A stretch of 64,000 bases of DNA from Escherichia phage FP43, in sequence record MN648445. One strand, given 5' to 3'. Position numbers and translations under genes: made by a program. Below the pieces are notes generated by a model. It was not told the DNA's origin and ran no database searches. It worked only from the letters and a program-made list of their open reading frames with translations. Of the stretch, positions 6,719-46,077 are shown piece by piece (position 1 is the stretch's first letter; the number at the start of each line of letters is the position of its first letter).

Positions 6719-8452
6719 TTACCCAATATCAATACGAGATCCGTCAACAGTGTATTGCCCTGAAGCTACTGAGCTCATTGTAGACATTGTTTCTGCCCAA
6801 TCCCCGGCAACAGTCATATCAACATTACCATTAACAGTCCATTTAACGTTTCCGTTGACGGTGTAATCATGATTCCCTTCGACCTGAGTTTTAGCATCAC
6901 CTTTAACAAGAATATCTGCATTTCCGTCAACAACTATTTTGATATTACCCTTAACGTAAAGAGTTCCATCGCCTTCAACAGTTTTAGATTGGTTACCACG
7001 AATAAAGATTGTGTCATTGCCGTCTATTTGATGGAGGCGGTCTGCCATGTTATAATATATTTCATTAGCACCAACGTTAACAAGCTTATCGCCAGAAATC
7101 AAAAAGTTCCCATCGCCATTAGTGATGTCAAAAAGGTCTTCTACAGTTTTACGAGTACGACGGCCGGATGGAGAAACTTCCTCATATGACCCTGTTGGAT
7201 GAACTAAGCGATAACGTTCATTACCTGGAGTATCGTCAAATTCTTGGATATGACCACTTTCTGTTTCCATAGCATGAACGTATGGATACTCACCACGATA
7301 ACTTGATTCCGGTTCTTTAAAAAGGATGCGTGAATCTAATGGAACAGGAGGACCAGCCGGGTCTTCTGGATCGGTATTTCTAGTAACTAAATCGGCACCA
7401 ACTCCTGGTGAAGGCGGCGTTTTAACAGGAACACCATATGATTCCATGTTACCGGTTAAAATAATTGTTGTTACACGTGAAGCGCGTCCTTTAGTCTGTT
7501 GGAACCATAATGAATCGCGTCCAGATTTGTATGCAGTTTTCCAATCGCCTGTGGCCATTGCTTTAAGCATAGTATTGAATTTTGCTACACCACCAACACC
7601 CATTTGGAAGCACATGTTTTCTAATGCCATTTGACGAGATCTGTTCATTTTAGCATAAACAGGACCTACTTTAGAATTAGAACGAATATCTTTCTGCATC
7701 TTAGCAAGGTCTTTCTCAAATAACGCTGTTGCTTCTTCTAATGTAATAGTTCCCGGATTTCCTGTTACTTCACGCCCTACTTGATCAGATAACAATTTAT
7801 TAATTCGAGACATATCTCGGGTTTTTTCCATTACGATAAGGTGTCCAATACCTACTGTAGGATACCCGAGATGGTCCCAATACACTTTATCACGAAGTCC
7901 TTCGTCACGACGTAACATTTCTGTTATTGTAAAATTAGGGTCATCATCTTCCGGAATATTTGCTAAATCTGTATCATCTGGGTTTATACCGTAATCCAAG
8001 TTGTTATCTTGAATTACGTTAGAGTTTGAATAATAACCAGCTTCACCGCCTTGGTTTAATACGTTCGTATCATTACCTAAACGCCGTGGATACTGGCCTG
8101 TCGGGTCTGAAAAACCTTCAAGTCTATTAGGCTTTTCACGTACAATCCCACCGTATGTACCAAGTACAATCCCATTTGTTTTCCATTTGTCTAAGAAATG
8201 ACCATATACTCGAGTTCCTTCAACAGGACCTGTAACAGAACCACCAATACCTGACATTGATGCAGACGTAATAGGTTGAATAACAGTCATCCATGGAAGT
8301 TTTTCTGTAGGAATACCTTGTACGTCACCTTGTGCTCTCTGTGCTGGATGAAGACCAACGACTCGAACTCGAACTCGCCCTTGTTTTAATGGGTCCATTC
8401 TGTCCTCGACAACACCCACGAACCAATTAAGGCTACTGCTAATCATTTCCAT
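6719..8452 (-). CDS. 5: Baseplate hub subunit and tail lysozyme gp5
   Basis: 577-aa ORF; internal T4-lysozyme-like segment (TVGIGHLIV..., ALENMCFQMGVGGVAKF) and C-terminal VxGxxxV beta-helix repeats. Confidence 0.9.
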   Translation of the reverse strand: MEMISSSLNWFVGVVEDRMDPLKQGRVRVRVVGLHPAQRAQGDVQGIPTEKLPWMTVIQPITSASMSGIGGSVTGPVEGTRVYGHFLDKWKTNGIVLGTYGGIVREKPNRLEGFSDPTGQYPRRLGNDTNVLNQGGEAGYYSNSNVIQDNNLDYGINPDDTDLANIPEDDDPNFTITEMLRRDEGLRDKVYWDHLGYPTVGIGHLIVMEKTRDMSRINKLLSDQVGREVTGNPGTITLEEATALFEKDLAKMQKDIRSNSKVGPVYAKMNRSRQMALENMCFQMGVGGVAKFNTMLKAMATGDWKTAYKSGRDSLWFQQTKGRASRVTTIILTGNMESYGVPVKTPPSPGVGADLVTRNTDPEDPAGPPVPLDSRILFKEPESSYRGEYPYVHAMETESGHIQEFDDTPGNERYRLVHPTGSYEEVSPSGRRTRKTVEDLFDITNGDGNFLISGDKLVNVGANEIYYNMADRLHQIDGNDTIFIRGNQSKTVEGDGTLYVKGNIKIVVDGNADILVKGDAKTQVEGNHDYTVNGNVKWTVNGNVDMTVAGDWAETMSTMSSVASGQYTVDGSRIDIG

Positions 8453-9027: not shown

Positions 9028-9054
9028 GATAGTCTCCTTCCAATATGAAATTGG

Positions 9055-9062
9055 TATAAATA
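9055..9062 (+). promoter_or_regulatory. Late promoter (TATAAATA) for gene 4
   Basis: Exact T4 late-promoter octamer 26 nt upstream of the gene 4 ATG. Confidence 0.65.
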
Positions 9063-9069
9063 ATAATAC

Positions 9070-9077
9070 TATTTATA
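9070..9077 (-). promoter_or_regulatory. Late promoter (TATAAATA) for gene 53 operon, divergent from the gene 4 promoter
   Basis: Reverse complement of TATTTATA at 9070..9077 is TATAAATA, about 43 nt upstream of the gp53 start. Confidence 0.6.
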
Positions 9078-9088
9078 AGGAGGACAAC

Positions 9089-9538
9089 ATGGCCTACTCT
9101 GGTAAATGGGTCCCAAAAAATTTAAAAAAATACCGTGGAGACCATACCAAAATAACGTATCGTTCAAACTGGGAAAAATTCTTTTTCGAATGGTTGGATA
9201 AAAATCCAGAAATTATTGCATGGGGTAGTGAAACAGCAGTAATTCCATATTTTTGTAATGCTGAAGGTAAGAAACGTCGATACTATATGGACATATGGAT
9301 GAAAGATGCATCAGGTCAAGAGTTCTTTGTAGAAATAAAACCAAAGAAAGAAACTCAGCCACCTATTAAACCGGTGAATCTTACAACTGCGGCTAAGAAA
9401 CGTTATATGAATGAAATCTACACATGGTCTGTGAACTGTGACAAATGGAAAGCTGCCTCAGCTGTTGCTGAAAAGAGAAATATAAAATTTCGAGTTCTAA
9501 CCGAAGATGGTCTTAGAAAACTCGGATACAAGGGGTAA
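9089..9538 (+). CDS. 4: Head completion protein gp4
   Basis: ATG at 9089 gives 150 aa ([15 protein letters not shown]...), the T4 gp4 size; GGAGG RBS. Confidence 0.85.
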
Positions 9539-10458: not shown

Positions 10459-11049
10459 GTGCTTATGACTCGTCCAGCGAGACAGATTTTTAACCAAACA
10501 AATATAACAAACTTTGTTGTGGATATCCCGGATAGTACACGAACTTCAGGTTTTGTGCTCAATGCCCAAACGGCTCCACTGCCAGGTGTGAGAATTCCTG
10601 TTGTTGAAACTGTGACAGGCACAATGGGGCTAGGTCGTGCAATGCGTGCAGGCACCACATTTGAATATGACCCTTTTATTGTACGATTTATAGTTGATGA
10701 AGACATGACGTCCTGGATGAACATGTATAAATGGATGCTCAGCACTAATAACTATATAACCGGACATAATACGGCACATGCCGATGGTCCTGAGTTTGTT
10801 ACTTTGCACATTTTAAACAACAATAAGACCGAAGTAGTTTTGACTGCGAATTTCTATAAACCATGGATTTCCGATCTGAGCGAAATTGAATTTAGTTACA
10901 CCGAAGACTCTGACCCTGCCGTTACGTGCGTAGCAACTATTCACTATGCGTATATGACGATAGAAAAGGATGGTGAAGTCATTGTATCTCAACAACCACG
11001 TCAAGCAGTCGAATCTAAATCCATTTCTAGACACCCTTCCTTGCGTTAA
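10459..11049 (+). CDS. 3: Tail completion and sheath stabiliser gp3 (start uncertain)
   Basis: 196-aa ORF in the 2-3-1 position of T4. Confidence 0.65.
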   Translation: MLMTRPARQIFNQTNITNFVVDIPDSTRTSGFVLNAQTAPLPGVRIPVVETVTGTMGLGRAMRAGTTFEYDPFIVRFIVDEDMTSWMNMYKWMLSTNNYITGHNTAHADGPEFVTLHILNNNKTEVVLTANFYKPWISDLSEIEFSYTEDSDPAVTCVATIHYAYMTIEKDGEVIVSQQPRQAVESKSISRHPSLR

Positions 11050-11102
11050 TCGCTTCTAGCTCCGTATGTTATAATCACTCATAAATTATATGAGGAAAAC
11101 CT

Positions 11103-11837
11103 ATGGAGCTAATCTTTTTAAGTGGCATCAAACGTAGTGGTAAAGACACTACTGCTGATTACATCAATTCAAACTTTAAATCCGTAAAATACCAATTAGC
11201 ATATCCAATTAAAGACGCTCTAGCAATAGCCTGGGGACGTAGGCATGCTGAAAATCCTGATGTATTCACAGAGTTGAAATACGAATACTTTGAAGGCATT
11301 GGATACGACCGTGAAACACCATTAAATCTCAATAAGTTGGATGTTATTGAATTATTGGAAGAAGCGCTAATTTATTTGCAAAGTCAATATTTACCGATTA
11401 ATAATGTTAAAGTATTATCATCGTTAGAAGGTGGATATTCATATCTAGATATTAAACCATATGAAGCCCTGCGTGAAGCTATAAATAATATCAACGACAC
11501 ATGGTCAATCCGCCGTCTTATGCAAGCCCTCGGTACGGATGTTGTCGTTAATTTATTTGACCGTATGTATTGGGTTAAGCTTTTTGCATTAAACTATATG
11601 GATTATATTGGAAGTGATTTCGATTACTATGTTGTAACAGATACACGTCAAGTCCATGAAATGGAAACCGCTAGAGCGATGGGTGCTACAGTTATTCATG
11701 TGGTTCGCTCTGGTACGGAATCCACCGATAAACATATTACAGAAGCTGGGTTGCCTATTGAAGAAGGCGATTTAGTTATTACAAACGACGGCTCTTTAGA
11801 AGAGCTTTATTCTAAAATTGAAACAATCTTAAGGTAA
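11103..11837 (+). CDS. 1: Deoxynucleoside monophosphate kinase
   Basis: 244-aa ORF with N-terminal P-loop-like GIKRSGKDT; synteny 3-1-57A. Confidence 0.85.
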   Translation: MELIFLSGIKRSGKDTTADYINSNFKSVKYQLAYPIKDALAIAWGRRHAENPDVFTELKYEYFEGIGYDRETPLNLNKLDVIELLEEALIYLQSQYLPINNVKVLSSLEGGYSYLDIKPYEALREAINNINDTWSIRRLMQALGTDVVVNLFDRMYWVKLFALNYMDYIGSDFDYYVVTDTRQVHEMETARAMGATVIHVVRSGTESTDKHITEAGLPIEEGDLVITNDGSLEELYSKIETILR

Positions 11838-12603: not shown

Positions 12604-12891
12604 ATGAAAACCTATAAAGAATTTATATCACCTGTTGCTAACGTTTCTACTCTGACTGAAGCAACCCTTACTTCCGAAGTTATTAAAGCAAATAAAGGAC
12701 GTGAGGGTAAACCAATGATTAGTCTGGTTGATGGTGAAGAAGTAAAAGGTACTGTTTACTTAGGGGATGGATGGTCTGCTAAGAAAGATGGCGCTACTGT
12801 TGTTATCTCTCCGGCCGAAGAGACCGCACTGTTTAAAGCTAAGCATATTTCTGTAGCTCAGCTTAAAATTATTGCAAAAACTCTTCTGTAA
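12604..12891 (+). CDS. Internal-protein-like capsid-targeted protein
   Basis: N-terminus MKTYKEFI matches the capsid-targeting leader of T4 internal proteins; ipI position after 57B. Confidence 0.6.
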   Translation: MKTYKEFISPVANVSTLTEATLTSEVIKANKGREGKPMISLVDGEEVKGTVYLGDGWSAKKDGATVVISPAEETALFKAKHISVAQLKIIAKTLL

Positions 12892-12894
12892 GTA

Positions 12895-12933
12895 GTTTAC
12901 ATGCTGATAGGACTATGTTATAGTAGTCCTATC
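12895..12933 (+). promoter_or_regulatory. Early promoter cassette with perfect 10-bp inverted repeat around -10
   Basis: GTTTAC 12895..12900; TATAGT 12919..12924; arms GATAGGACTA (12906..12915) and TAGTCCTATC (12924..12933). Confidence 0.65.
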
Positions 12934-12959
12934 AGATCAACAACCAAACGGAAAAACAA

Positions 12960-13225: not shown

Positions 13226-13264
13226 GTTTACATGCCGATAGGACTATGTTATAGTAGTCCTATC
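13226..13264 (+). promoter_or_regulatory. Early promoter cassette, same family as 12895
   Basis: GTTTAC 13226..13231, TATAGT 13250..13255, GATAGGACTA/TAGTCCTATC arms. Confidence 0.65.
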
Positions 13265-13293
13265 AAAACAAAATGATTAAATGGAGAAATAAA

Positions 13294-20176: not shown

Positions 20177-20214
20177 GTTTACAACAAGATAGGGCTATGT
20201 TATAGTAGTCCTAT
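20177..20214 (+). promoter_or_regulatory. Early promoter cassette (GATAGG.CTA / TAGTCCTATC family)
   Basis: GTTTAC 20177..20182, TATAGT 20201..20206. Confidence 0.6.
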
Positions 20215-20234
20215 CAAAACAAATGGAGTCCACA

Positions 20235-23516: not shown

Positions 23517-23964
23517 GAAAAATAAAGTGAAAGAGCTATCAGCCGGTATTATTTTCCTTACCGAAGATAAAGAATTATTCATGGGGCGTGTAACTGGTTC
23601 TCGTCCTAAAGGTGCATTAACTCATCGGTGGGATATTCCTAAAGGCCGTGTCGAACCTGGCGAATCTCCTATTGAAGCCGCTATTCGTGAATGCGAAGAA
23701 GAAACTGGGTTTACACAATATGACCCTGCCTTCCTGAAAGACCTAGGTGAACATCATTACTCAGACAATAAGAATATTCATCTGTTCCTATATACCATCC
23801 CTGTAGAGCACGAGCAATTCAGAAACAGTGTTTGTAATTCCTATCATACATTCCAAGACGGACGACATATTCCTGAATTTGATGCATTCGCTTTAATTAA
23901 ACCTTCTCAATGGGAATATGTAATGGGCAAATCGTTATATAAGGTGCTCACTACCCTCCTATAA
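23506..23964 (+). CDS. nudE: Nudix hydrolase NudE
   Basis: 152 aa with Nudix box GRVEPGESPIEAAIRECEEETG; directly upstream of e as in T4. Confidence 0.8.
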   Translation: MMSKKNKVKELSAGIIFLTEDKELFMGRVTGSRPKGALTHRWDIPKGRVEPGESPIEAAIRECEEETGFTQYDPAFLKDLGEHHYSDNKNIHLFLYTIPVEHEQFRNSVCNSYHTFQDGRHIPEFDAFALIKPSQWEYVMGKSLYKVLTTLL

Positions 23965-23970
23965 GTAATA

Positions 23971-23998
23971 AATACCTCCTATAAACGTGGGAGGTATT
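23971..23998 (+). promoter_or_regulatory. Stem-loop sequestering the Shine-Dalgarno of gene e
   Basis: 9-bp stem AATACCTCC / GGAGGTATT with 10-nt loop TATAAACGTG; ATG at 23999 follows immediately. Confidence 0.65.
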
Positions 23999-24487
23999 AT
24001 GAATATATTTGAAATGCTTCGTAATGACGAAGGTCTTAGACTGACTTTATACAAAGACACTGAAGGCTTTTGGACGATTGGCATAGGCCATTTAGTAACA
24101 AAGAACCCGTCTTTAGCCGTAGCTAAAGCTGAACTTGACAGAATGATCGGTCGTAAATGCAACGGTACAATTACCCTTGATGAGGCTGAAAAGCTATTTA
24201 ATGAAGACGTTGATAAAGCTGTCCGCGGAATCTTGGGTAATGCTAAACTTAAACCGGTATATGATTCTTTAGATGCAGTTCGTCGGTGTGCATTGGTCAA
24301 TATGGTCTTCCAAATGGGTGTAGCAGGAGTCGCCGGTTTTACTAATTCTCTTCGTATGCTTAAACAGAAACGTTGGGATGAAGCGGCAGTAAATCTAGCT
24401 CAATCTAAATGGTATCGTCAGACACCTAATCGCGCGAAACGCGTAATCTCAACATTTAAAACAGGAACTTGGAAAGCGTATATATGA
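23999..24487 (+). CDS. e: Endolysin (T4-type lysozyme)
   Basis: [32 protein letters not shown]...; near-identical in pattern to T4 lysozyme as recalled. Confidence 0.92.
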
Positions 24488-24765
24488 AAACATATAGTGA
24501 ATTTTTATCAGAATCTATTCTTAACGAAGCTACTGACACATTTGCAACTAAGCTAGGTGCAGCTTTGGTTGAAGCTGAAAGTCTATTAGCACGTATTTCT
24601 GAACTTGCTAGTAAGATAGATACTCGCAAATTTGAACGTACCAGCGATATCGCTAAGCTTGAAGCCTTGTTGCGTATGTGCGATAAACCAGAAGAAATCG
24701 CTAAGAACGGCTCGCTGATGAAACAACGTCTTGAAAAATATATTTCAGGCGCTTCAGAAAAATAG
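24484..24765 (+). CDS. Internal-protein-like capsid-targeted protein
   Basis: N-terminus [10 protein letters not shown]; ATGA overlap with e stop; ipII/ipIII neighbourhood of T4. Confidence 0.6.
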
Positions 24766-24766
24766 T

Positions 24767-24818
24767 GTTTACTTCCTCCAAGGGTTTTGATACTATACAT
24801 TCATCAACTACTTGGAGG
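24767..24818 (+). promoter_or_regulatory. Early promoter cassette whose 3' arm contains the denV Shine-Dalgarno
   Basis: GTTTAC 24767..24772, TACTAT 24791..24796; perfect 8-bp arms CCTCCAAG (24775..24782) and CTTGGAGG (24811..24818). Confidence 0.6.
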
Positions 24819-24823
24819 AAATT

Positions 24824-25237
24824 ATGACTCGTATCAATTTAACACTTGTTTCTGAACTGTCCGACCAACATCTTATGGCTGAGTATCGTGAATTACCACG
24901 CGTATTTGGTGCAGTCCGTAAACATGTTCAAAACGGTAAACGTGTAAAGGATTTTAAAATCTCTCCAACATTTATCTTAGGCACAGGTCACGTAACATTC
25001 TTTTACGACAAACTCGAATTTTTACGTTTACGTCAAATCGAGCTAATCGTTGAATGTTTGAAACGTGGTTTCAAAATCAAGGACACGACAGTCCAGGATA
25101 TTTCCGACATCCCTGCCGAATTTCGTAATAATTATGTCCCGTCCGAAGCGTCCATTGCGATAAGTCAAGCACGCTTAGATGAAAAAATTGCTCAACGTCC
25201 GACTTGGTACAAATACTATGGTAAATCAATTTACTAA
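24824..25237 (+). CDS. denV: Endonuclease V (pyrimidine-dimer DNA glycosylase)
   Basis: [35 protein letters not shown]...; 137 aa; recognised T4 denV pattern. Confidence 0.9.
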
Positions 25238-25244
25238 GGAAAAA

Positions 25245-25574
25245 ATGAAAACATATCAAGAGTTTATCACTGAAGTTACATTATCTGCGGAACAGAAAGC
25301 TGCTATCGAAGAAAGTAAAAATCCCAAAGTAACATATAAAGTAAATAGTAAAGGCGTTTTTGATGGCTTGGTTCAAGACCCTGAATTGAAAAAAGCTCTT
25401 TCTAAAACTAATGCGTACTTTGCTCCTAAATTTAACACAGCAGGTGTACTTATTGGATTGGATGTATTCAACTCTAAAGGTGTTCTATCTAATGCCTTTG
25501 GCTATGCCGCTAACAAAATTACCAAAGCCGCATGGGAATCCAATACCAAACAAGCTCAAAAGCCTAGAGTATAA
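25245..25574 (+). CDS. Internal-protein-like capsid-targeted protein
   Basis: N-terminus MKTYQEFITE, exact match to the recalled T4 leader MKTYQEFIAE with one substitution. Confidence 0.65.
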   Translation: MKTYQEFITEVTLSAEQKAAIEESKNPKVTYKVNSKGVFDGLVQDPELKKALSKTNAYFAPKFNTAGVLIGLDVFNSKGVLSNAFGYAANKITKAAWESNTKQAQKPRV

Positions 25575-25746
25575 TTCTTGTCTAATAAAGGGAAACGCAA
25601 CCTCTCCTTATGAACGTCGAGTCCTCTGAGTGATGTACCTTTTCCAACCTGTAATAAGGTCGAGCGCAATGCGGTAATGGGTTTACATAGCGAGTCGAAG
25701 GACCTAACATGTGCCACGGAATGGCCCAAACCTTAAGAGAAATAAT

Positions 25747-26286
25747 ATGAGAACATTTTTAACTGGACCTTATCTATCCCTGATGAATGCTTTTACACAC
25801 CATTCTGATGCTAGAGTAGAAGAAATTTGTAAGAACGGTTATATCCCACCATTTGAAGACGTACTCAAGCAGTACTGTACACTTCGTTTAGACGGCGGCA
25901 GACAATCAGGTAAATCAATTGCTGTGACTAACTTTGCTGCTAATTGGCTGTATGATGGTGGAACAGTTATTGTTCTTTCTAATACTTCAGCTTATGCTAA
26001 AATTTCTGCTGGCAACATTGAAAAAGAATTTTCTCGTTATTCTAGCGACAATATTCGATTCCGTTTATTTACTGATTCTGTCCGTAGTTTTATTGGCAAT
26101 GAAGGTTCTAAATTCCGTGGATTAACGCTTTCTCGTATTCTGTATATAATTGACGAGCCTATTAAAGCTCCTGATATGGATAAGATTTACAATGTCCATA
26201 TTAAAACAGTACAGTACTGCTGCAAAAGCAAATATTGCATCGGCGGTAATGCTCGTCCTCAATTTTTTGTGATTGGAATGCAATGA
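25747..26286 (+). CDS. Hypothetical protein
   Basis: 179-aa ORF; weak P-loop-like GGRQSGKS. Confidence 0.45.
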   Translation: MRTFLTGPYLSLMNAFTHHSDARVEEICKNGYIPPFEDVLKQYCTLRLDGGRQSGKSIAVTNFAANWLYDGGTVIVLSNTSAYAKISAGNIEKEFSRYSSDNIRFRLFTDSVRSFIGNEGSKFRGLTLSRILYIIDEPIKAPDMDKIYNVHIKTVQYCCKSKYCIGGNARPQFFVIGMQ

Positions 26287-26591
26287 TGACCACTATTGAA
26301 GTTTTTGAATATTGTTATAACAGCCCAGTATGCAATAAAAGGGCTCTTGTAGAAAATTACGAGATTTACCATTTTAAACCTAAACGATACCGTTTGACTA
26401 AAGGTCCGTTCGCAGGGCAGCAGGTTCTTTGTACTGCTCCTAATGCACGGTTGATGACTAGTATTCCGCATTTCAAAATGGAATTTATTGATGGGCCATT
26501 TAAGGGATTAATCACTCAAAGTTTAATGGCGTTTAATTCTGACCCATTTTTGATTAAAGAAAAAACTTGGATAAATTTATTTTCTAATTGA
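26283..26591 (+). CDS. Hypothetical protein
   Basis: 102-aa ORF with ATGA overlap. Confidence 0.4.
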   Translation: MMTTIEVFEYCYNSPVCNKRALVENYEIYHFKPKRYRLTKGPFAGQQVLCTAPNARLMTSIPHFKMEFIDGPFKGLITQSLMAFNSDPFLIKEKTWINLFSN

Positions 26592-26597
26592 GGTTAT

Positions 26598-26960
26598 ATG
26601 AAAGCATATCAAATTCTTGAAGGTGCACATAAAGGCACTATTTATTTTGAAGACGGTACTCAAGCCCGGATTATCGTCTCTAAGACTTTTAAAGAAGACG
26701 CTATTGTAGACCCGGAAATTTTCTACGGTTTGAATGCCCGTGAAATTGAAATTGAACATCAACCTAAAGTTAAAATTGAAGGTGGTCAACACCTGAACGT
26801 TAATGTTCTGCGTCGTGAAACTCTGGAAGATGCAGTTAAGCATCCAGAAAAATATCCGCAGTTGACCATTCGTGTATCCGGTTATGCAGTTCGCTTTAAC
26901 TCTCTGACTCCAGAACAGCAGCGCGACGTTATCGCTCGTACCTTTACTGAGAGTCTATAA
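26598..26960 (+). CDS. Autonomous glycyl-radical cofactor (GrcA/YfiD-like; T4 Y06I-like)
   Basis: 120 aa; C-terminus [28 protein letters not shown] carries the RVSGY glycyl-radical motif. Confidence 0.75.
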
Positions 26961-27184
26961 TGGCTAAATTGATTATAGAAGGGTCTAAAGATGTGCTAAA
27001 TGCTTTCGCAGAATGGTTTAGTAATTCAGGCGAGCAATCATTCACTGAAGCATTTAGAATGGGTGATATTACTGGAAAATATCCGACAACCGATATCACT
27101 GTACGTGGATATGGTATTAATGAGCCTATCCAATTGGTCGAATATGACCTTGCCACCGATGAGGAAATTCCTTATGTCGATTGA
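26960..27184 (+). CDS. Small hypothetical protein
   Basis: 74-aa ORF with ATGA overlap. Confidence 0.4.
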   Translation: MAKLIIEGSKDVLNAFAEWFSNSGEQSFTEAFRMGDITGKYPTTDITVRGYGINEPIQLVEYDLATDEEIPYVD

Positions 27185-27419
27185 AGACATCAAAGGCTAC
27201 AAGCCGCATACCGATGATAAAATCGGTAAAGTGAACGCTATTAAAGATGCAGAAGTTCGATTAGGGCTTATTTTCGATGCCTTGGCGGAAGAAGCGTTGT
27301 CTGCGAATACTCCTGAAGCTTTGACAGCTTTGTCCCAATTGAACTGTGCTAAAGAACGCCTAAAGGAAGCTAGTATGTGGGCTTGTCGTGCGGTATTTCA
27401 ACCAGAGGAAAAATACTAA
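27174..27419 (+). CDS. Small hypothetical protein
   Basis: 81-aa ORF from internal ATG 27174. Confidence 0.4.
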
Positions 27420-27718
27420 TGGCTCAAATCCTATCAGGCTTTGGAACTCATTATGAAGCATCTCGACGCATAACTGAAAACAATCCTTTTGGCCTTGTTC
27501 CGAAGCACAAGAAAATTCAAAGCCTTGATGACTTTGAGAACCGCCTATGGGCCCTCTTTAATGAGTACAAGGCATATCTGAAAGAAGACGCTGACGATTG
27601 TCTTGAAGAAGATGAGATTGCGTATTACGAACAACGCCTTGAACAGCTCAAGAACTTCCACCAGGTTCGTGACGAAGTATCTAAAGCAGTTAAAAAGTTA
27701 ATTCCTTTCAAAGAGTAG
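27419..27718 (+). CDS. Hypothetical protein
   Basis: 99-aa ORF; denV-regB interval where T4 carries the vs.x genes. Confidence 0.45.
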
Positions 27719-27766
27719 TTTACTTCTCCTCTAGTTGTGTTACTATAGACCTGTCAACTAGAGGAG
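27718..27766 (+). promoter_or_regulatory. Early promoter cassette with perfect 12-bp inverted repeat; 3' arm contains the regB Shine-Dalgarno
   Basis: GTTTAC 27718..27723, TACTAT 27741..27746, arms CTCCTCTAGTTG (27726..27737) and CAACTAGAGGAG (27755..27766). Confidence 0.65.
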
Positions 27767-27774
27767 AAATCAAA

Positions 27775-28233
27775 ATGACTATCAATTCGGAAGTTTTTAT
27801 CCGCCGTAATAAACTCCGTCGAATCTTTGAAACGGAGTTCCGCAAAATAAATGCCGGTATAAAAGATGCTGCAAAGTCTCTTGGACTACCAGGCTTTCAT
27901 ATCAAGTATTCTCAACATCTCTTAGATCGTGCCATCCAGAGAGAAATAGATGAGAATTACGTTTTTGAATTATTTCATAAAGTAAAAAATCATGTTAAAG
28001 AAGTTGCAGAATTTTTATCAATGCCGGCACGTCCAGATGTTGATGAAGATTTTGTCGAAGGTGTCGAATATCGCCCAGGCCGTTTAGAAATAACTGACGG
28101 AAATCTTTGGTTAGGACTTACAGTCTGTCGCGAAAATCCAGCATTCAAAATGAAGACTCTTCAATGCAGAATGGCTATTATTAACAGTAAACGACTACCA
28201 GGAAAAGCTTCTAAAGCAGTGATTAAAATCTAG
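27775..28233 (+). CDS. regB: Endoribonuclease RegB
   Basis: 152 aa, MTINSEVFIRRNKLRR...; recognised T4 RegB pattern. Confidence 0.85.
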   Translation: MTINSEVFIRRNKLRRIFETEFRKINAGIKDAAKSLGLPGFHIKYSQHLLDRAIQREIDENYVFELFHKVKNHVKEVAEFLSMPARPDVDEDFVEGVEYRPGRLEITDGNLWLGLTVCRENPAFKMKTLQCRMAIINSKRLPGKASKAVIKI

Positions 28234-30797: not shown

Positions 30798-31010
30798 ATG
30801 CAGCAATTAAACGAAAGACAACTTCGTAATCTTACTGTAACCCAATTGGATGAAATCCGAAGAGAATTAGGACATTCTATTTCTCATTTAAACGAGGATA
30901 TCCGTCAAACTGGTTCTAAAGCTGATTATACACGCAAGCGCAAGCTGGAAAAATACCTCACAGATGTTAAGGCCGTCCAAAGGCGAAAAATAAATACTGG
31001 CCAAAATTAA
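30798..31010 (+). CDS. Hypothetical protein (tk-rI interval)
   Basis: 70-aa basic ORF. Confidence 0.45.
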
Positions 31011-31022
31011 CAGGAGGCCTAT

Positions 31023-31325
31023 ATGGCCTTAAGAGCGATAGCTGTCATAGCGATGCTGGGGTTTTTTGCAGCAACAACTCCTATCGTTGGTACTGCACAT
31101 ATTGACCCATATTTTGATAACTTTATGGAATCAGGGATTAAAAACGTATATACTTTGTTTGAAATTCAAAATGTCGAGAATTCTGAAAAATTCTATAAGT
31201 ATATGGCAAAGCATTACAAAAATAGCCCCTGTGATGATGCATTTGAATGTCATGAACAAGGCATAAAAACTGCCAGACAATTTGCTGAGTTCATGAAAAT
31301 AAAATTAGAGCCTACATCTATCTAA
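31023..31325 (+). CDS. rI: Lysis-inhibition regulator RI
   Basis: 100 aa with signal-anchor MALRAIAVIAMLGFFA; pattern matches recalled T4 RI. Confidence 0.8.
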   Translation: MALRAIAVIAMLGFFAATTPIVGTAHIDPYFDNFMESGIKNVYTLFEIQNVENSEKFYKYMAKHYKNSPCDDAFECHEQGIKTARQFAEFMKIKLEPTSI

Positions 31326-31370: not shown

Positions 31371-31420
31371 GTTTACTTCTCCTCAGGTTGTGTTATAGTA
31401 GTCCTTACTTACTAGAGGAG
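31371..31420 (+). promoter_or_regulatory. Early promoter cassette; CTCCTC near -35 pairs with GAGGAG RBS downstream
   Basis: GTTTAC 31371..31376, TATAGT 31394..31399. Confidence 0.55.
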
Positions 31421-31426
31421 AACGTT

Positions 31427-31606
31427 ATGACACGTAAAGAAAAGATTTCTAAGTTGATGTTTTTGATTGAAGAGTACGCTAATGCGGTATCTGATTGGGA
31501 AAATGCTCATGGTTGCGAAGATGGAGACATCGACATTAACAGAGCTATGAAAAAGATGGCCGACGCCCACACTGAATTGCAAATGTATGTTAACGAGATT
31601 ATGTGA
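31427..31606 (+). CDS. Small hypothetical protein
   Basis: 59-aa ORF from ATG 31427. Confidence 0.4.
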   Translation: MTRKEKISKLMFLIEEYANAVSDWENAHGCEDGDIDINRAMKKMADAHTELQMYVNEIM

Positions 31607-31820: not shown

Positions 31821-31858
31821 TTTACATCTCGGTAGGATTATGTTATAGTAGTCCTACC
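31820..31858 (+). promoter_or_regulatory. Early promoter cassette (GGTAGGATTA / TAGTCCTACC arms)
   Basis: GTTTAC 31820..31825, TATAGT 31844..31849. Confidence 0.6.
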
Positions 31859-31877
31859 AAAACAAACGGAGAACAAA

Positions 31878-35980: not shown

Positions 35981-36020
35981 GTTTACAAGGTCTATGGTTG
36001 TGTTATTATAGACCTATCAA
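35981..36020 (+). promoter_or_regulatory. Early promoter cassette (AGGTCTAT / ATAGACCT arms)
   Basis: GTTTAC 35981..35986, TATTAT 36004..36009. Confidence 0.55.
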
Positions 36021-36036
36021 CTACTGGAGGTAAAAC

Positions 36037-36564
36037 ATGAACGCTAAAGATATTTTCAACCTGGTAAATTATAACGACGGTAAATTTAAATCTGAAGCAC
36101 AAAGCAAGTTCTTTAATGACGTTGCTTATGGTAATGAGATTACCGTGGACGGAGGTCAGATTTTCAAATCTCGCTGGAATTGGATTGTTATCATAGATTC
36201 AGTTGGAATTGTGGAAGTCTACAAAAACACTAACAAAAAACGTACATTATTCTGGTCTCGTGAAACTAACGAACAGTACAAAAAGGATAAAGCATCTCGT
36301 TTATCCAAAGTAACCCAGGAAGATATCGAGTTTATCAAGAAAAATATCGAGATGTACGAAAATTTAATCGCTGAAGACCAGGCAGTACTCGATAAGTTTG
36401 ATGAAATTAAAGCTTCTCGTGAAATCCCTGACTTCATGAAAGAAACAGTAAACGAACGATACGCTCTCACTTCAGAACGTATTGCAAACTATACAAAACA
36501 GAAAGCAGAACGTATTAGTACTCTTCGGAAATTTGAAGAACGTTTAAAGACGGTTCACGCATAA
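36037..36564 (+). CDS. Hypothetical protein
   Basis: 175-aa ORF with GGAGG RBS. Confidence 0.45.
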   Translation: MNAKDIFNLVNYNDGKFKSEAQSKFFNDVAYGNEITVDGGQIFKSRWNWIVIIDSVGIVEVYKNTNKKRTLFWSRETNEQYKKDKASRLSKVTQEDIEFIKKNIEMYENLIAEDQAVLDKFDEIKASREIPDFMKETVNERYALTSERIANYTKQKAERISTLRKFEERLKTVHA

Positions 36565-41589: not shown

Positions 41590-42003
41590 ATGAATATTTC
41601 TGAAACTCGCGGTAAATGGTTCAAGATTGTTAAAGAAGACGAAGAACTACAAGTCAAGTTTCCTGAATTAAAGAAAGGAACAATCATCAAGGTAATTGGT
41701 ACTACTACCGAAGATGGTTATGGCGACCATGGCATTATCGAAGTGATGTTGAACACAGGTGAGAAACTTTGCATCTATGACCGTGATACTTCTCTTTGGT
41801 GCTTCTGGGAATCCCATTCAATAGATGAACTCGAAGAAATTGACCAAGTAGTTTGTGATGGTGGACTTGGTGAATTCGAAGGTGAACGTATTTCTTATGC
41901 TTTAGCTAAATTAGCTTGTCAAGAAAATAATGACGGTTATGAAGGTAATCTGATGCAAGCCGCAGCGGAATACATTGAATATTTAGAAAGACGTTTAAGT
42001 TAA
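41590..42003 (+). CDS. Hypothetical protein (T4 pin position; not verified)
   Basis: 137-aa ORF from ATG 41590; followed by weak hairpin. Confidence 0.4.
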   Translation: MNISETRGKWFKIVKEDEELQVKFPELKKGTIIKVIGTTTEDGYGDHGIIEVMLNTGEKLCIYDRDTSLWCFWESHSIDELEEIDQVVCDGGLGEFEGERISYALAKLACQENNDGYEGNLMQAAAEYIEYLERRLS

Positions 42004-42038
42004 TAAATACCCTTATCTATTTAAGGTAAGGGTTTATT

Positions 42039-42512
42039 ATGTTATTATCTGGCAAATTATACAAAGAAGAAAAACAAAAATTTTATGATGCACAGAACGG
42101 TAAGTGTCCTATTTGCCACCGTGAATTAGACCCTGATGTTCAAGGTAACCATCTTGACCACGACCATGAATTAAACGGGCCAAAAGCTGGTAAGGTTCGT
42201 GGTTTACTATGTAACCTGTGCAATGCAGCAGAAGGTCAAATGAAGCATAAGTTCAACCGTTCTGGTCTTAAAGGTCAAAACGTTGATTACCTCGAATGGC
42301 TTGAAGCTCTTCTTGCTTATTTGAAACAAGACTATTCTGATAATAATGTCCATCCTAATTTTGTTCCAGACAAAACTAAAGAGTTCTCAAGACTAGGTAA
42401 AGAGGAAATGATGACCGAGATGCTTCAAAGAGGATTTGAATATAATGAATCTGATACTAAAACACAATTAATAGCTTCATTCAAAAAGCAGCTTAGAAAG
42501 AGTTTAAAATGA
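42039..42512 (+). CDS. 49: Endonuclease VII (Holliday-junction resolvase)
   Basis: 157 aa MLLSGKLYKEEKQKFYDAQNGKCPICHREL...HLDHDH...; recognised T4 gp49 pattern. Confidence 0.88.
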   Translation: MLLSGKLYKEEKQKFYDAQNGKCPICHRELDPDVQGNHLDHDHELNGPKAGKVRGLLCNLCNAAEGQMKHKFNRSGLKGQNVDYLEWLEALLAYLKQDYSDNNVHPNFVPDKTKEFSRLGKEEMMTEMLQRGFEYNESDTKTQLIASFKKQLRKSLK

Positions 42513-45837: not shown

Positions 45838-45866
45838 GTTTACATCCTCGATAGATATGTTAAGAT
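45838..45866 (+). promoter_or_regulatory. Early-type promoter
   Basis: GTTTAC 45838..45843, TAAGAT at 17-nt spacing. Confidence 0.4.
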
Positions 45867-45894
45867 TAAACCATCTGCTATAGAGGAAAACAAA

Positions 45895-46077
45895 ATGACA
45901 ATTGAAGATAAAGAAATTAAGGTTGACCAGTACTATTCTGTCAACGGTAATGCAGTACAGATAACCAGAGTTTCAAGCCTGGATGTTTGGTACCGTTCAA
46001 TCAAATATTCGGAAATTGGTGAAATGCTTTGTGACCGTGGTATCTTCTGTTCAATTGCAAAGGAAATTAAACCATGA
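45895..46077 (+). CDS. Small hypothetical protein
   Basis: 60-aa ORF with GAGGAAAA RBS. Confidence 0.4.
   Translation: MTIEDKEIKVDQYYSVNGNAVQITRVSSLDVWYRSIKYSEIGEMLCDRGIFCSIAKEIKP

Follow-up and report, generated by a model that had tools for sequence, protein, structure and literature searches.

What is the role of a phage early promoter that lies inside a potential RNA hairpin, when the same hairpin also holds the Shine–Dalgarno (SD) sequence of the next gene? This question is raised by two genes of Escherichia phage FP43, denV (endonuclease V) and regB (sequence-specific endoribonuclease), in a stretch of 64,000 nucleotides from sequence record MN648445, which is called the window here. 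The window belongs to a Mosigvirus, an RB69-like relative of T4; over the 3.6 kb around denV and regB, the Mosigvirus genomes (Escherichia phage LH01, the O157 typing phages 3, 6, and 13, and ATK47) are 97–98.6% identical to it. A first-pass annotation of the window had proposed two modes of expression at both genes. RNA read through from upstream would fold and hide the SD, and RNA started at the embedded promoter would lack the 5′ arm of the hairpin and remain open. Here, we describe the anatomy, folding, and conservation of the two cassettes, which together suggest that the hairpins probably gate the translation of denV and regB in this manner.

Anatomy of the denV and regB cassettes

The two cassettes are built alike. 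The promoter of each is of the early type, GTTTAC-N17/18-TACTAT, and its −35 element directly follows the stop codon of the upstream open reading frame (ORF). The −10 element lies between the arms of an inverted repeat, in a hairpin loop of 17–28 nt, and the SD is contained in the 3′ arm, at a distance of 5–8 nt from the ATG. The arms reported in the first-pass annotation were 8 bp long at denV (CCTCCAAG, 24775–24782; CTTGGAGG, 24811–24818) and 12 bp long at regB (CTCCTCTAGTTG, 27726–27737; CAACTAGAGGAG, 27755–27766), and all four were found exactly at these sites. The stems are longer than had been noted, reaching 10 bp at denV (TTCCTCCAAG/CTTGGAGGAA) and 14 bp at regB (TTCTCCTCTAGTTG/CAACTAGAGGAGAA). 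The features of the two cassettes and their flanking genes are as follows.

24469..24765, + strand, upstream internal-head-protein-like ORF; its stop codon TAG (24763..24765) is 7 nt 5′ of the denV 5′ arm
24767..24772, + strand, denV −35 element GTTTAC, the T4-type early promoter consensus (PMC1524935, PMC4122927)
24773..24782, + strand, denV 5′ arm TTCCTCCAAG (anti-SD), within the −35/−10 spacer
24791..24796, + strand, denV −10 element TACTAT, in the hairpin loop; predicted start at ~24803
24811..24820, + strand, denV 3′ arm CTTGGAGGAA, which holds the SD GGAGG (24814–24818)
24824..25237, + strand, denV (endonuclease V) coding sequence; ATG at 24824–24826
27377..27718, + strand, ORF 5′ of regB; its stop codon TAG (27716..27718) shares the first base of the regB −35 element
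27718..27723, + strand, regB −35 element GTTTAC, the early promoter consensus
27724..27737, + strand, regB 5′ arm TTCTCCTCTAGTTG (anti-SD and variable part), within the −35/−10 spacer
27741..27746, + strand, regB −10 element TACTAT, in the loop; predicted start at ~27753
27755..27768, + strand, regB 3′ arm CAACTAGAGGAGAA, which holds the SD GAGGAG (27761–27766), including GGAG
27775..28233, + strand, regB (sequence-specific endoribonuclease) coding sequence; ATG at 27775–27777

Both 5′ arms are wholly upstream of the −10 element, so a transcript from the embedded promoter cannot contain the arm, whatever its exact start site. A typical early promoter has been reported for T4 regB, and the GGAG of the regB SD is cut by RegB itself in T4-type phages (PMC3014915).

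Folding of the long and short RNAs

The accessibility of the start sites was expressed as an opening energy, which is the free energy required to unfold positions −14 to +3 of the gene (from the SD to the AUG). The long RNAs containing both arms fold with −19.1 kcal/mol (z −4.06) for denV and −21.6 kcal/mol (z −4.74) for regB, and none of 200 dinucleotide shuffles was as stable in either case. The 28–29 nt RNAs from the predicted starts are unstructured (−0.5 and −2.5 kcal/mol, respectively). Opening of the start site costs 11.3 kcal/mol in the long RNA versus 2.8 kcal/mol in the short RNA for denV, and 17.3 versus 2.9 kcal/mol for regB. The long-form cost shifts with the upstream context that is folded, within 8.0–13.6 kcal/mol for denV and 13.0–17.3 kcal/mol for regB. 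When the upstream part was shuffled, the native opening cost was reached in seven of 200 cases for denV and in none of 200 for regB. The 12-mer inverted repeat of regB did not occur in any of 100 shuffles. The pairing probability of the SD was also tried as a metric and was dropped in favor of the opening energy because it saturates, with GGAG finding a partner in about half of the shuffles. These values bear out the folding claim of the first-pass annotation, i.e., that the SD is hidden in the long RNA and open in the short RNA without the 5′ arm. The two-mode model is supported in each of its predictions at the level of sequence, and from these we infer the mechanism itself.

Comparison with the gene e hairpin

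The lysozyme gene of the window is preceded by a hairpin that can be compared directly with those of denV and regB.

23971..23998, + strand, gene e (lysozyme) hairpin AAUACCUCCUAU/GUGGGAGGUAUU, which buries the e SD (−16.3 kcal/mol, z −5.8); e ATG at 23999

A late-promoter-like AATAAATA (23967–23974) overlaps the start of the 5′ arm of this hairpin, with TATAAGTA at 23960 and TATAAACG in the loop. Its opening costs 16.4–16.5 kcal/mol, and it has the same stop-to-stem geometry as the denV and regB hairpins and a similar stability. In T4, the gene e hairpin reduces lysozyme synthesis from long transcripts 100-fold (PMC3014915). The first-pass annotation had likened denV and regB to this T4 mechanism. 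The likeness holds for the arrangement of a promoter inside a hairpin with the SD in the 3′ arm, but not for the type of promoter and genes, which are early and not late.

The stop-to-stem geometry brings in an alternative explanation, translational coupling. A ribosome finishing the upstream ORF would melt the base of the stem and free the SD, and translation would be proportional to that of the upstream ORF rather than silenced. Only 7–8 nt separate the upstream stop codons from the 5′ arms, and the stem base, where the SD is paired, is the part nearest to the terminating ribosome. With an assumed melting reach of +13 nt, the residual masking is 5.1 kcal/mol for denV and 1.9 kcal/mol for regB. 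This reach is implausibly long; the usual helicase reach is +7 to +10 nt, at which the masking amounts to 10–16 kcal/mol in the window and 11–17 kcal/mol in T4. At +7/+10 nt past the stop, opening still costs 14.2/10.0 kcal/mol for denV and 15.7/8.3 kcal/mol for regB. The gene e hairpin of the window shares the geometry and the response to melting, and its T4 counterpart (whose own stop-to-stem geometry was not checked) is the one silenced ~100-fold in long RNA. That the stop codon abuts the −35 element simply results from the compactness of the genome. We consider coupling improbable as the explanation of the two cassettes; it would be a leak at most.

Conservation of the pairing in related phages

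RegB- and DenV-encoding loci from IMG/VR and the T4 record (AF158101) were compared with the window. In the regB stem, the SD dictates the sequence of the SD-proximal part, whereas the inner part varies by clade and yet is complementary in each of them. The inner stems are TAGTTG/CAACTA in the window (Mosigvirus), TTGACTG/CAGTTAA with two G·U pairs in T4 (Tequatrovirus), TTTATG/CATAAA in STML-198 (Gelderlandvirus), and TGTAAG/CTTACA in CF1 (Moonvirus). KPV15 (Jiaodavirus) has a nested stem, GGGCCAT/ATGGCCC within TTTCCTT/AAGGAGA. The regB pairing is therefore kept by compensatory changes across five genera. Among the phages with GTTTAC promoters, all of the distinct regB cassettes (9/9) are masked by 7–21 kcal/mol and ~30 distinct denV cassettes by 5–21 kcal/mol, in each case in the long form only.

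The denV cassettes have two architectures. In the first, the anti-SD is in the spacer, as in the window and in T4 (TCTCCTGTAG/CTACAGGAGA). In the second, the 5′ arm covers the −10 element and the discriminator, and the 3′ arm extends from the SD to the AUG, e.g., ATGTCCTCCTA/TAGGAGGACAT in locus L038. The 5′ arm is essentially upstream of the predicted start in both architectures; in L038, it reaches ~3 nt past the predicted start, but the short RNA stays open (1.3 kcal/mol). Judging from these predicted starts, the arms vary in sequence and the 5′ arm in position, but the 3′ arm always holds the SD, and the transcript of the promoter itself stays free of the 5′ arm. Because the inclusion of the SD is constant while the arms vary, the pairing of the SD is the conserved feature.

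An alignment-free swap test was also performed, in which the duplex energy of the segment upstream of the start was calculated for each cassette with its own leader and with the leaders of other cassettes. The mean energy was −14.6 kcal/mol for the native duplexes versus −9.5 kcal/mol for the swapped duplexes, which still share the generic complement of anti-SD and SD, and the native mean was reached in none of 20,000 permutations. A column-based covariation count on a MAFFT alignment of the regB cassettes was dropped, because the arms are out of register, the SD being shifted by 1–3 nt among the clades. The masking helices contain 30 G·U pairs versus five A·C mismatches, in a folding by minimum free energy that is biased toward counting G·U. 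The excess of G·U over A·C favors a structure on the sense RNA, not on the DNA or the antisense strand.

These results also bear on an explanation at the DNA level, in which the repeat forms a cruciform or serves as a palindrome for protein binding at the promoter, or on its origin as a chance inverted repeat. Since the repeat brackets the −10 element, a DNA structure would affect the use of the promoter, and the denV 8-mer taken alone is not beyond chance. In contrast, no binding site is common to the arms, which are wholly different from cassette to cassette and from clade to clade. Spacers of 17–28 nt are unfavorable for cruciform extrusion, and the ratio of 30 to 5 is a strand asymmetry. 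A chance repeat is excluded by the covariation and the swap test. An origin of the repeats in DNA structure or in chance is thus very hard to credit.

A rearranged cassette was seen in one of the denV loci. In L032 (1425–1503), denV is located behind a cassette almost identical to the promoter cassette of T4 ipIII (L097 minus strand, ~6917–7000), GTTTACTTTCTC..GAATTGTGATAGTATATTCACAATTACTTG. The denV SD is still masked in this locus (13.2 versus 2.8 kcal/mol). The presence of an ipIII-type cassette before denV is consistent with cassette-mediated rearrangement.

Masked and open start sites in the T4 genome

The T4 orthologs behave similarly, with an opening cost of 17.4 kcal/mol in the long form and 1.9 kcal/mol in the short form for regB, and 13.2 and 1.8 kcal/mol for denV. 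The 7 kb from ipIII to tk contain 13 genes without their own promoter, and all of these have open starts (2.8–8.8 kcal/mol). Because they have no promoter of their own, read-through RNA must serve for their translation. The promoter hairpins of ipII and ipIII make no contact with their own SD.

In the whole T4 genome, 36 GTTTAC-type cassettes are followed by an SD and ATG, and 10–11 of them are masked. The masked set of eleven has a long–short difference of at least 8.9 kcal/mol and consists of alc (17.7 kcal/mol), regB (16.6), nrdC.8 (15.3), modB (14.5), ndd.4 (13.1), motB.2 (12.6), e.8 (12.1), denV (11.2), alt.-3 (11.1), 30.8 (10.6), and mrh.2 (8.9). Masking is absent from the cassettes of motA, asiA, ipI–III, dmd, sp, pin, srd, and others. 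When promoters and leaders of T4 were paired at random, 1.5–1.7 masked cassettes were expected, with a maximum of seven in 20,000 permutations, versus 10 observed in that count. Near-identical promoter-hairpin cassettes are shared by alc (136278) and alt.-3 (123032) (AF158101). Among the masked genes are several whose products (Alc, ModB, and RegB) target host transcription, translation, or RNA, a function that would fit the need for a short burst of synthesis. At ndd.4, the annotated start (166764) falls within the leader; an ATG at 166749, 15 nt downstream of it and preceded by an SD, looks like the more plausible start.

The masked T4 leaders help in judging whether the pairing serves to protect the RNA, by hiding the intergenic GGAG or other nuclease sites so that the long polycistronic RNA survives and expression of the downstream genes continues, with the loss of denV or regB translation as a side effect. 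RegB cuts single-stranded intergenic GGAG, and 16 RegB-resistant GGAG sites of T4 are in stable structures (PMC1702504). The SD of regB, with an A-rich tract after it, is an efficient site for RegB. However, the GGAG of T4 denV, which has no A-rich 3′ context, is RegB-resistant anyway (PMC1702504), and yet it is masked. Some masked T4 leaders contain no GGAG, such as those of alc (GAGGAC) and motB.2 (GAGGAU), and the helix always covers the SD, whatever the SD sequence is. RNA protection as the primary role of the pairing is accordingly improbable.

Other early-promoter cassettes in the window

There are ~19 cassettes on the + strand, each consisting of GTTTAC, a spacer, TAnnnT, and then an SD and ATG, and nearly all of them have an inverted repeat around the −10 element. 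The SD is hidden in the long form in five of the 19, which are those of denV and regB, those at 31371 and 45838, and, more weakly, that at 35981.

31371..31429, + strand, third masking cassette TTCTCCTC ... GAGGAGAA, ahead of a small ORF downstream of rI; opening takes 15.1 kcal/mol in the long form versus 2.6 kcal/mol in the short form
45838..45897, + strand, fourth masking cassette TCCTCGATAG / CTATAGAGGA, with one mismatch, before a small ORF; 8.3 versus 1.0 kcal/mol
35981..36039, + strand, borderline masking cassette before the nrdC.8 homolog; 6.3–8.5 versus 1.5 kcal/mol

The other 14 cassettes show a long–short difference of less than 3 kcal/mol, and their repeat of 7–12 bp hugs the −10 element and stops before the SD. 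In LH01, early-promoter genes taken together show no more masking than the promoter-less genes (Mann–Whitney p 0.8; Fisher p 0.07). Masking is gene-specific and is not a general property of early-promoter cassettes. Strong repeats of 8–12 bp hugging the −10 element are present at 12904–12935, 13235–13266, 20186–20217, 31829–31860, and other sites, e.g., CTGATAGGACTA/TAGTCCTATCAG. They end before the SD, leave the start site open, and have no T-run.

Terminators and transcription from upstream

A consensus terminator scan gave no call at the denV or regB hairpin, and none on the + strand from gene e via the internal-protein gene to denV. By sequence, the two hairpins lack the GC-rich stem, short loop, and U-tract of intrinsic terminators; both stems are followed by A-rich sequence (ATTATGACTC and ATCAAAATGA) without a T-run. 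Weak terminator-like matches are found at 26242 and 26622, between denV and regB. The region 5′ of denV contains the e homolog (ATG 23999), with the late-promoter-like TATAAGTA (23960) and AATAAATA (23967), and the internal-protein gene (24469..24765), with no terminator after them. The regB gene is ~3 kb downstream of the denV promoter and of other early-type promoters. This layout would allow transcription to read through into the denV and regB cassettes.

Genuine terminators occur before the same genes in more distant phages. The most distant RegB locus, L016, has GGGCTCC-TA-GGAGCCC and then TTTTTGTTTT just before a GTTTAC promoter (1417–1445). In the denV loci of jumbo phages (L039, L041, L044, and L045, from phages of 345–378 kb), GGGTTGAC-TTCG-GTCAGCCC is followed by TTTTT across the −35 element (~1425–1475), and the terminator stem contains the −35 TTGAC. 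Neither group has an SD mask. These intrinsic terminator–promoter composites resemble the window cassettes in that a hairpin overlaps or abuts the early promoter before the same genes. They differ in their GC-rich stem, short loop, and T-run, and in lying off the SD, whereas the window hairpins have none of these features and cover the SD. The SD mask and the terminator at the promoter are two means to one end, the shielding of the gene from upstream transcription, as expected if the cassettes insulate their genes.

The closest published elements in T4-type phages are the PeSL (promoter-early stem-loop) cassettes (Arbiol 2010, PMC2839356; Comeau 2014, PMC4122927), which have been described in RB49/phi1, T4/PST, and KVP40/nt-1. 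Like the denV and regB cassettes, they are intergenic and combine a strong early promoter and its AT-rich upstream region with a stem-loop, an SD, and a start codon. Like the window cassettes in general, they are present in many copies in plastic early regions, often have the stem-loop between the −35 and −10 elements or over the −10 element, and bear signs of cassette exchange. The published stem-loops are compact and often of the form Gn-loop-Cn, with five positions that end before the start site, and the SD is a separate 3′ element. They were read as terminators or attenuators and as recombination linkers (PMC2839356, PMC4122927), and translation is not mentioned in the paper of Arbiol 2010 (PMC2839356). 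The denV and regB stems differ from the PeSL in enclosing the −10 and start region as a whole, in having the SD itself, downstream of the predicted start, as their 3′ arm, and in lacking terminator features.

The denV and regB hairpins might nevertheless be ordinary stem-loops of the PeSL type, which attenuate or terminate upstream transcription and link shuffled cassettes, with the overlap with the SD being incidental. This explanation draws on the description of cassettes with early promoter, stem-loop, and SD in T4-type phages (PMC2839356, PMC4122927). Most hairpins of the ~19 window cassettes do not involve the SD, and exchange is visible in denV of L032 behind its ipIII-type cassette and in the near-identical cassettes of T4 alc and alt.-3. 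Against it, the stems are followed by no T-run, have loops of 17–28 nt, and gave no terminator call. Among the orthologs, the arms differ in sequence and the 5′ arm in position, yet the 3′ arm continues to include the SD. The lineages with a genuine terminator at the promoter have no SD mask, and all five published stem-loop positions end before the start site and exclude the SD. We therefore regard incidental overlap of the SD with a PeSL-type stem-loop as unlikely.

Proposed mechanism of translational gating

Here, we propose a mechanism for the two cassettes based on their sequences. Each cassette would act as a sigma-70-type early promoter inside an RNA hairpin, with an anti-SD in the promoter spacer as the 5′ arm and the SD of the next gene as the 3′ arm. 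RNA polymerase arriving from upstream, either from earlier early promoters or, in the case of denV, from the e and internal-protein late promoters, would copy both arms. The read-through RNA would then fold into a local hairpin of 10–14 bp in which the SD is buried, and denV and regB would be poorly translated from it. The RNA from the embedded promoter would start between the arms, without the anti-SD, and its open leader of ~21 nt would allow free translation. Synthesis of each protein would be tied to its own immediate-early promoter and would end when the early promoters are shut off, even though the region is still transcribed. For regB, this would be a third layer of control on top of the known promoter shut-off and the self-cleavage of its own GGAG by RegB. 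Because RegB requires single-stranded RNA and is inhibited by structure (PMC1702504), the buried GGAG should escape RegB in the long RNA.

Several observations weigh against this mechanism. In 14 of the 19 window cassettes, the inverted repeat around the −10 element makes no contact with the SD, and since most of these repeats miss the SD, some other selective force also makes hairpins at these promoters. The denV 8-mer alone is not significant (at least two matches in 19 of 100 shuffles), and the denV stem is statistically modest when taken alone (opening-energy shuffle z 2.2). A PeSL stem-loop of RB49/phi1 cut the expression of downstream lacZ as strongly as rrnB T1, which is terminator-like behavior (PMC2839356). 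If a ribosome terminating 7–8 nt upstream opened the stem base, as with a reach of +13 nt, some coupled initiation could follow. With these points taken into account, we still consider it probable that the early-promoter hairpins gate the translation of denV and regB as proposed.

Relation to known systems

The T4 genes e, soc, 49, and I-TevI share the central feature with denV and regB (PMC3014915, PMC2988022), in that the 3′ arm of the hairpin is the SD or AUG and the transcript of the promoter itself lacks the 5′ arm. The long RNA is untranslatable and the short RNA is translated, as measured for e and I-TevI; the same would be expected of denV and regB from their folding. The four T4 genes have an internal gp55 late promoter, are late genes, and have their translation delayed. 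The denV and regB genes have a sigma-70 early promoter with the anti-SD in the spacer, are early genes, and would have their translation ended, not delayed. The late promoter TATAAATA does not occur within 24000–27800. Edgell et al. stated of the genes with known hairpins sequestering the ribosome-binding site that every one of them is a late gene. A review of post-transcriptional control in T4 gives inhibitory structures in the start region only for e, soc, 49, and I-TevI, and only the early promoter and self-cleavage for regB (PMC3014915).

Outside phages, the fold-back protection of IS10 appears to be the nearest analog. In IS10/Tn10 (and IS50), as proposed for denV and regB, only the read-through RNA carries an upstream segment that pairs with the translation start, and transcription from outside is shut out. 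In IS10, the pIN start lies downstream of the 5′ pairing segment. This transposase system is unrelated to the phage genes and has no temporal program. In PMC13181058, the translation signals of IS10 are described as sequestered, with a citation of Davis, Simons & Kleckner 1985.

The denV and regB cassettes are best described as an early-promoter, early-gene form of the promoter-in-hairpin logic known from e, soc, 49, and I-TevI. They overlap with the PeSL structurally and differ from their published description and function. Valerie et al. in 1986 reportedly noted that the T4 sequences before ipIII, ipII, denV, and orf61.9 can form stable stem-loops. If this is right, the bare existence of the T4 hairpins is an old observation, without the function discussed here.

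More tentatively, translation gated by early promoters may be a widespread and unrecognized feature of T4-type phages; this is a real possibility that we do not rate as high as the gating of denV and regB. It would involve ~30% of the T4 early-promoter cassettes, including those of the host-toxic alc, modB, and regB, with the anti-SD in the spacer or in the −10/discriminator region. If true, the hairpins would be a hard-wired translational off-switch, the temporal mirror of the gene e on-switch, and would insulate each mobile promoter–gene module from its transcriptional context. They would help explain the abrupt stop of many early proteins while their regions stay transcribed, and would add a third layer of shut-off for RegB and other potentially harmful immediate-early proteins. 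They would also account for the mismatches between mRNA and protein timing noted in T4 omics studies, and give a reason why promoter–gene cassettes shuffle between phages without misexpression. T4 is a reference system for timed gene expression, and in the reviews consulted, hairpins that sequester the ribosome-binding site are listed for late genes only, while stem-loops at early promoters are treated as terminators or recombination linkers. As the −10 element is in the loop, the promoter and the stem can be mutated independently, so the mechanism is directly testable.

Neighboring genes and other hidden start sites

Across the 3.6 kb, the annotation lists an internal head protein gene, denV (endonuclease V), several small ORFs, a GrcA-like gene, and regB (endoribonuclease), all on the + strand. 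Rfam covariance models gave zero matches at E ≤ 1 on either strand of 23800–28100, and no MotA-box middle promoter was found from 21 to 32 kb by the pattern used. Four small ORFs starting with MKTY(K/Q/S)EF... are present at 12604, 12960, 24486, and 25246, the latter two on either side of denV; these starts resemble the leader of the T4 internal head proteins. The segment 25575–25747, between an ORF end at 25574 and an ORF start at 25748, comprises ~170 nt without an annotated + strand gene and is GC-richer than its flanks. It has no Rfam match, and a small minus-strand ORF is annotated there in LH01.

Some other genes of the window also have hidden start sites. The homolog of dNMP kinase (gene 1; start 11103, ~11040–11105) has one of the most hidden starts in the window (16.5 kcal/mol). 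A hairpin, CTCATA-AATTA-TATGAG, is directly 3′ of a TATAAT, with a MotA-box-like CGCTTCTA upstream, and may represent the masking device in a middle-promoter form. At the homolog of the head-completion gene 4 (start 9089, ~9029–9091; 9.2 kcal/mol), GTCTCCTTCC is followed by TATAAATA (9055) and then GGAGGAC. The start of rI (31023, ~30960–31025) is hidden with 11.6 kcal/mol behind a GGCC-rich pairing near AATAAATA. At the homolog of gene 49 (endonuclease VII; start ~42039), the late-promoter-like AATAAATA is followed by a hairpin, CCCTTATC...TAAGGG, that hides the start (14.3 kcal/mol; ~41975–42041), an arrangement that agrees with the known mechanism of T4 gene 49.

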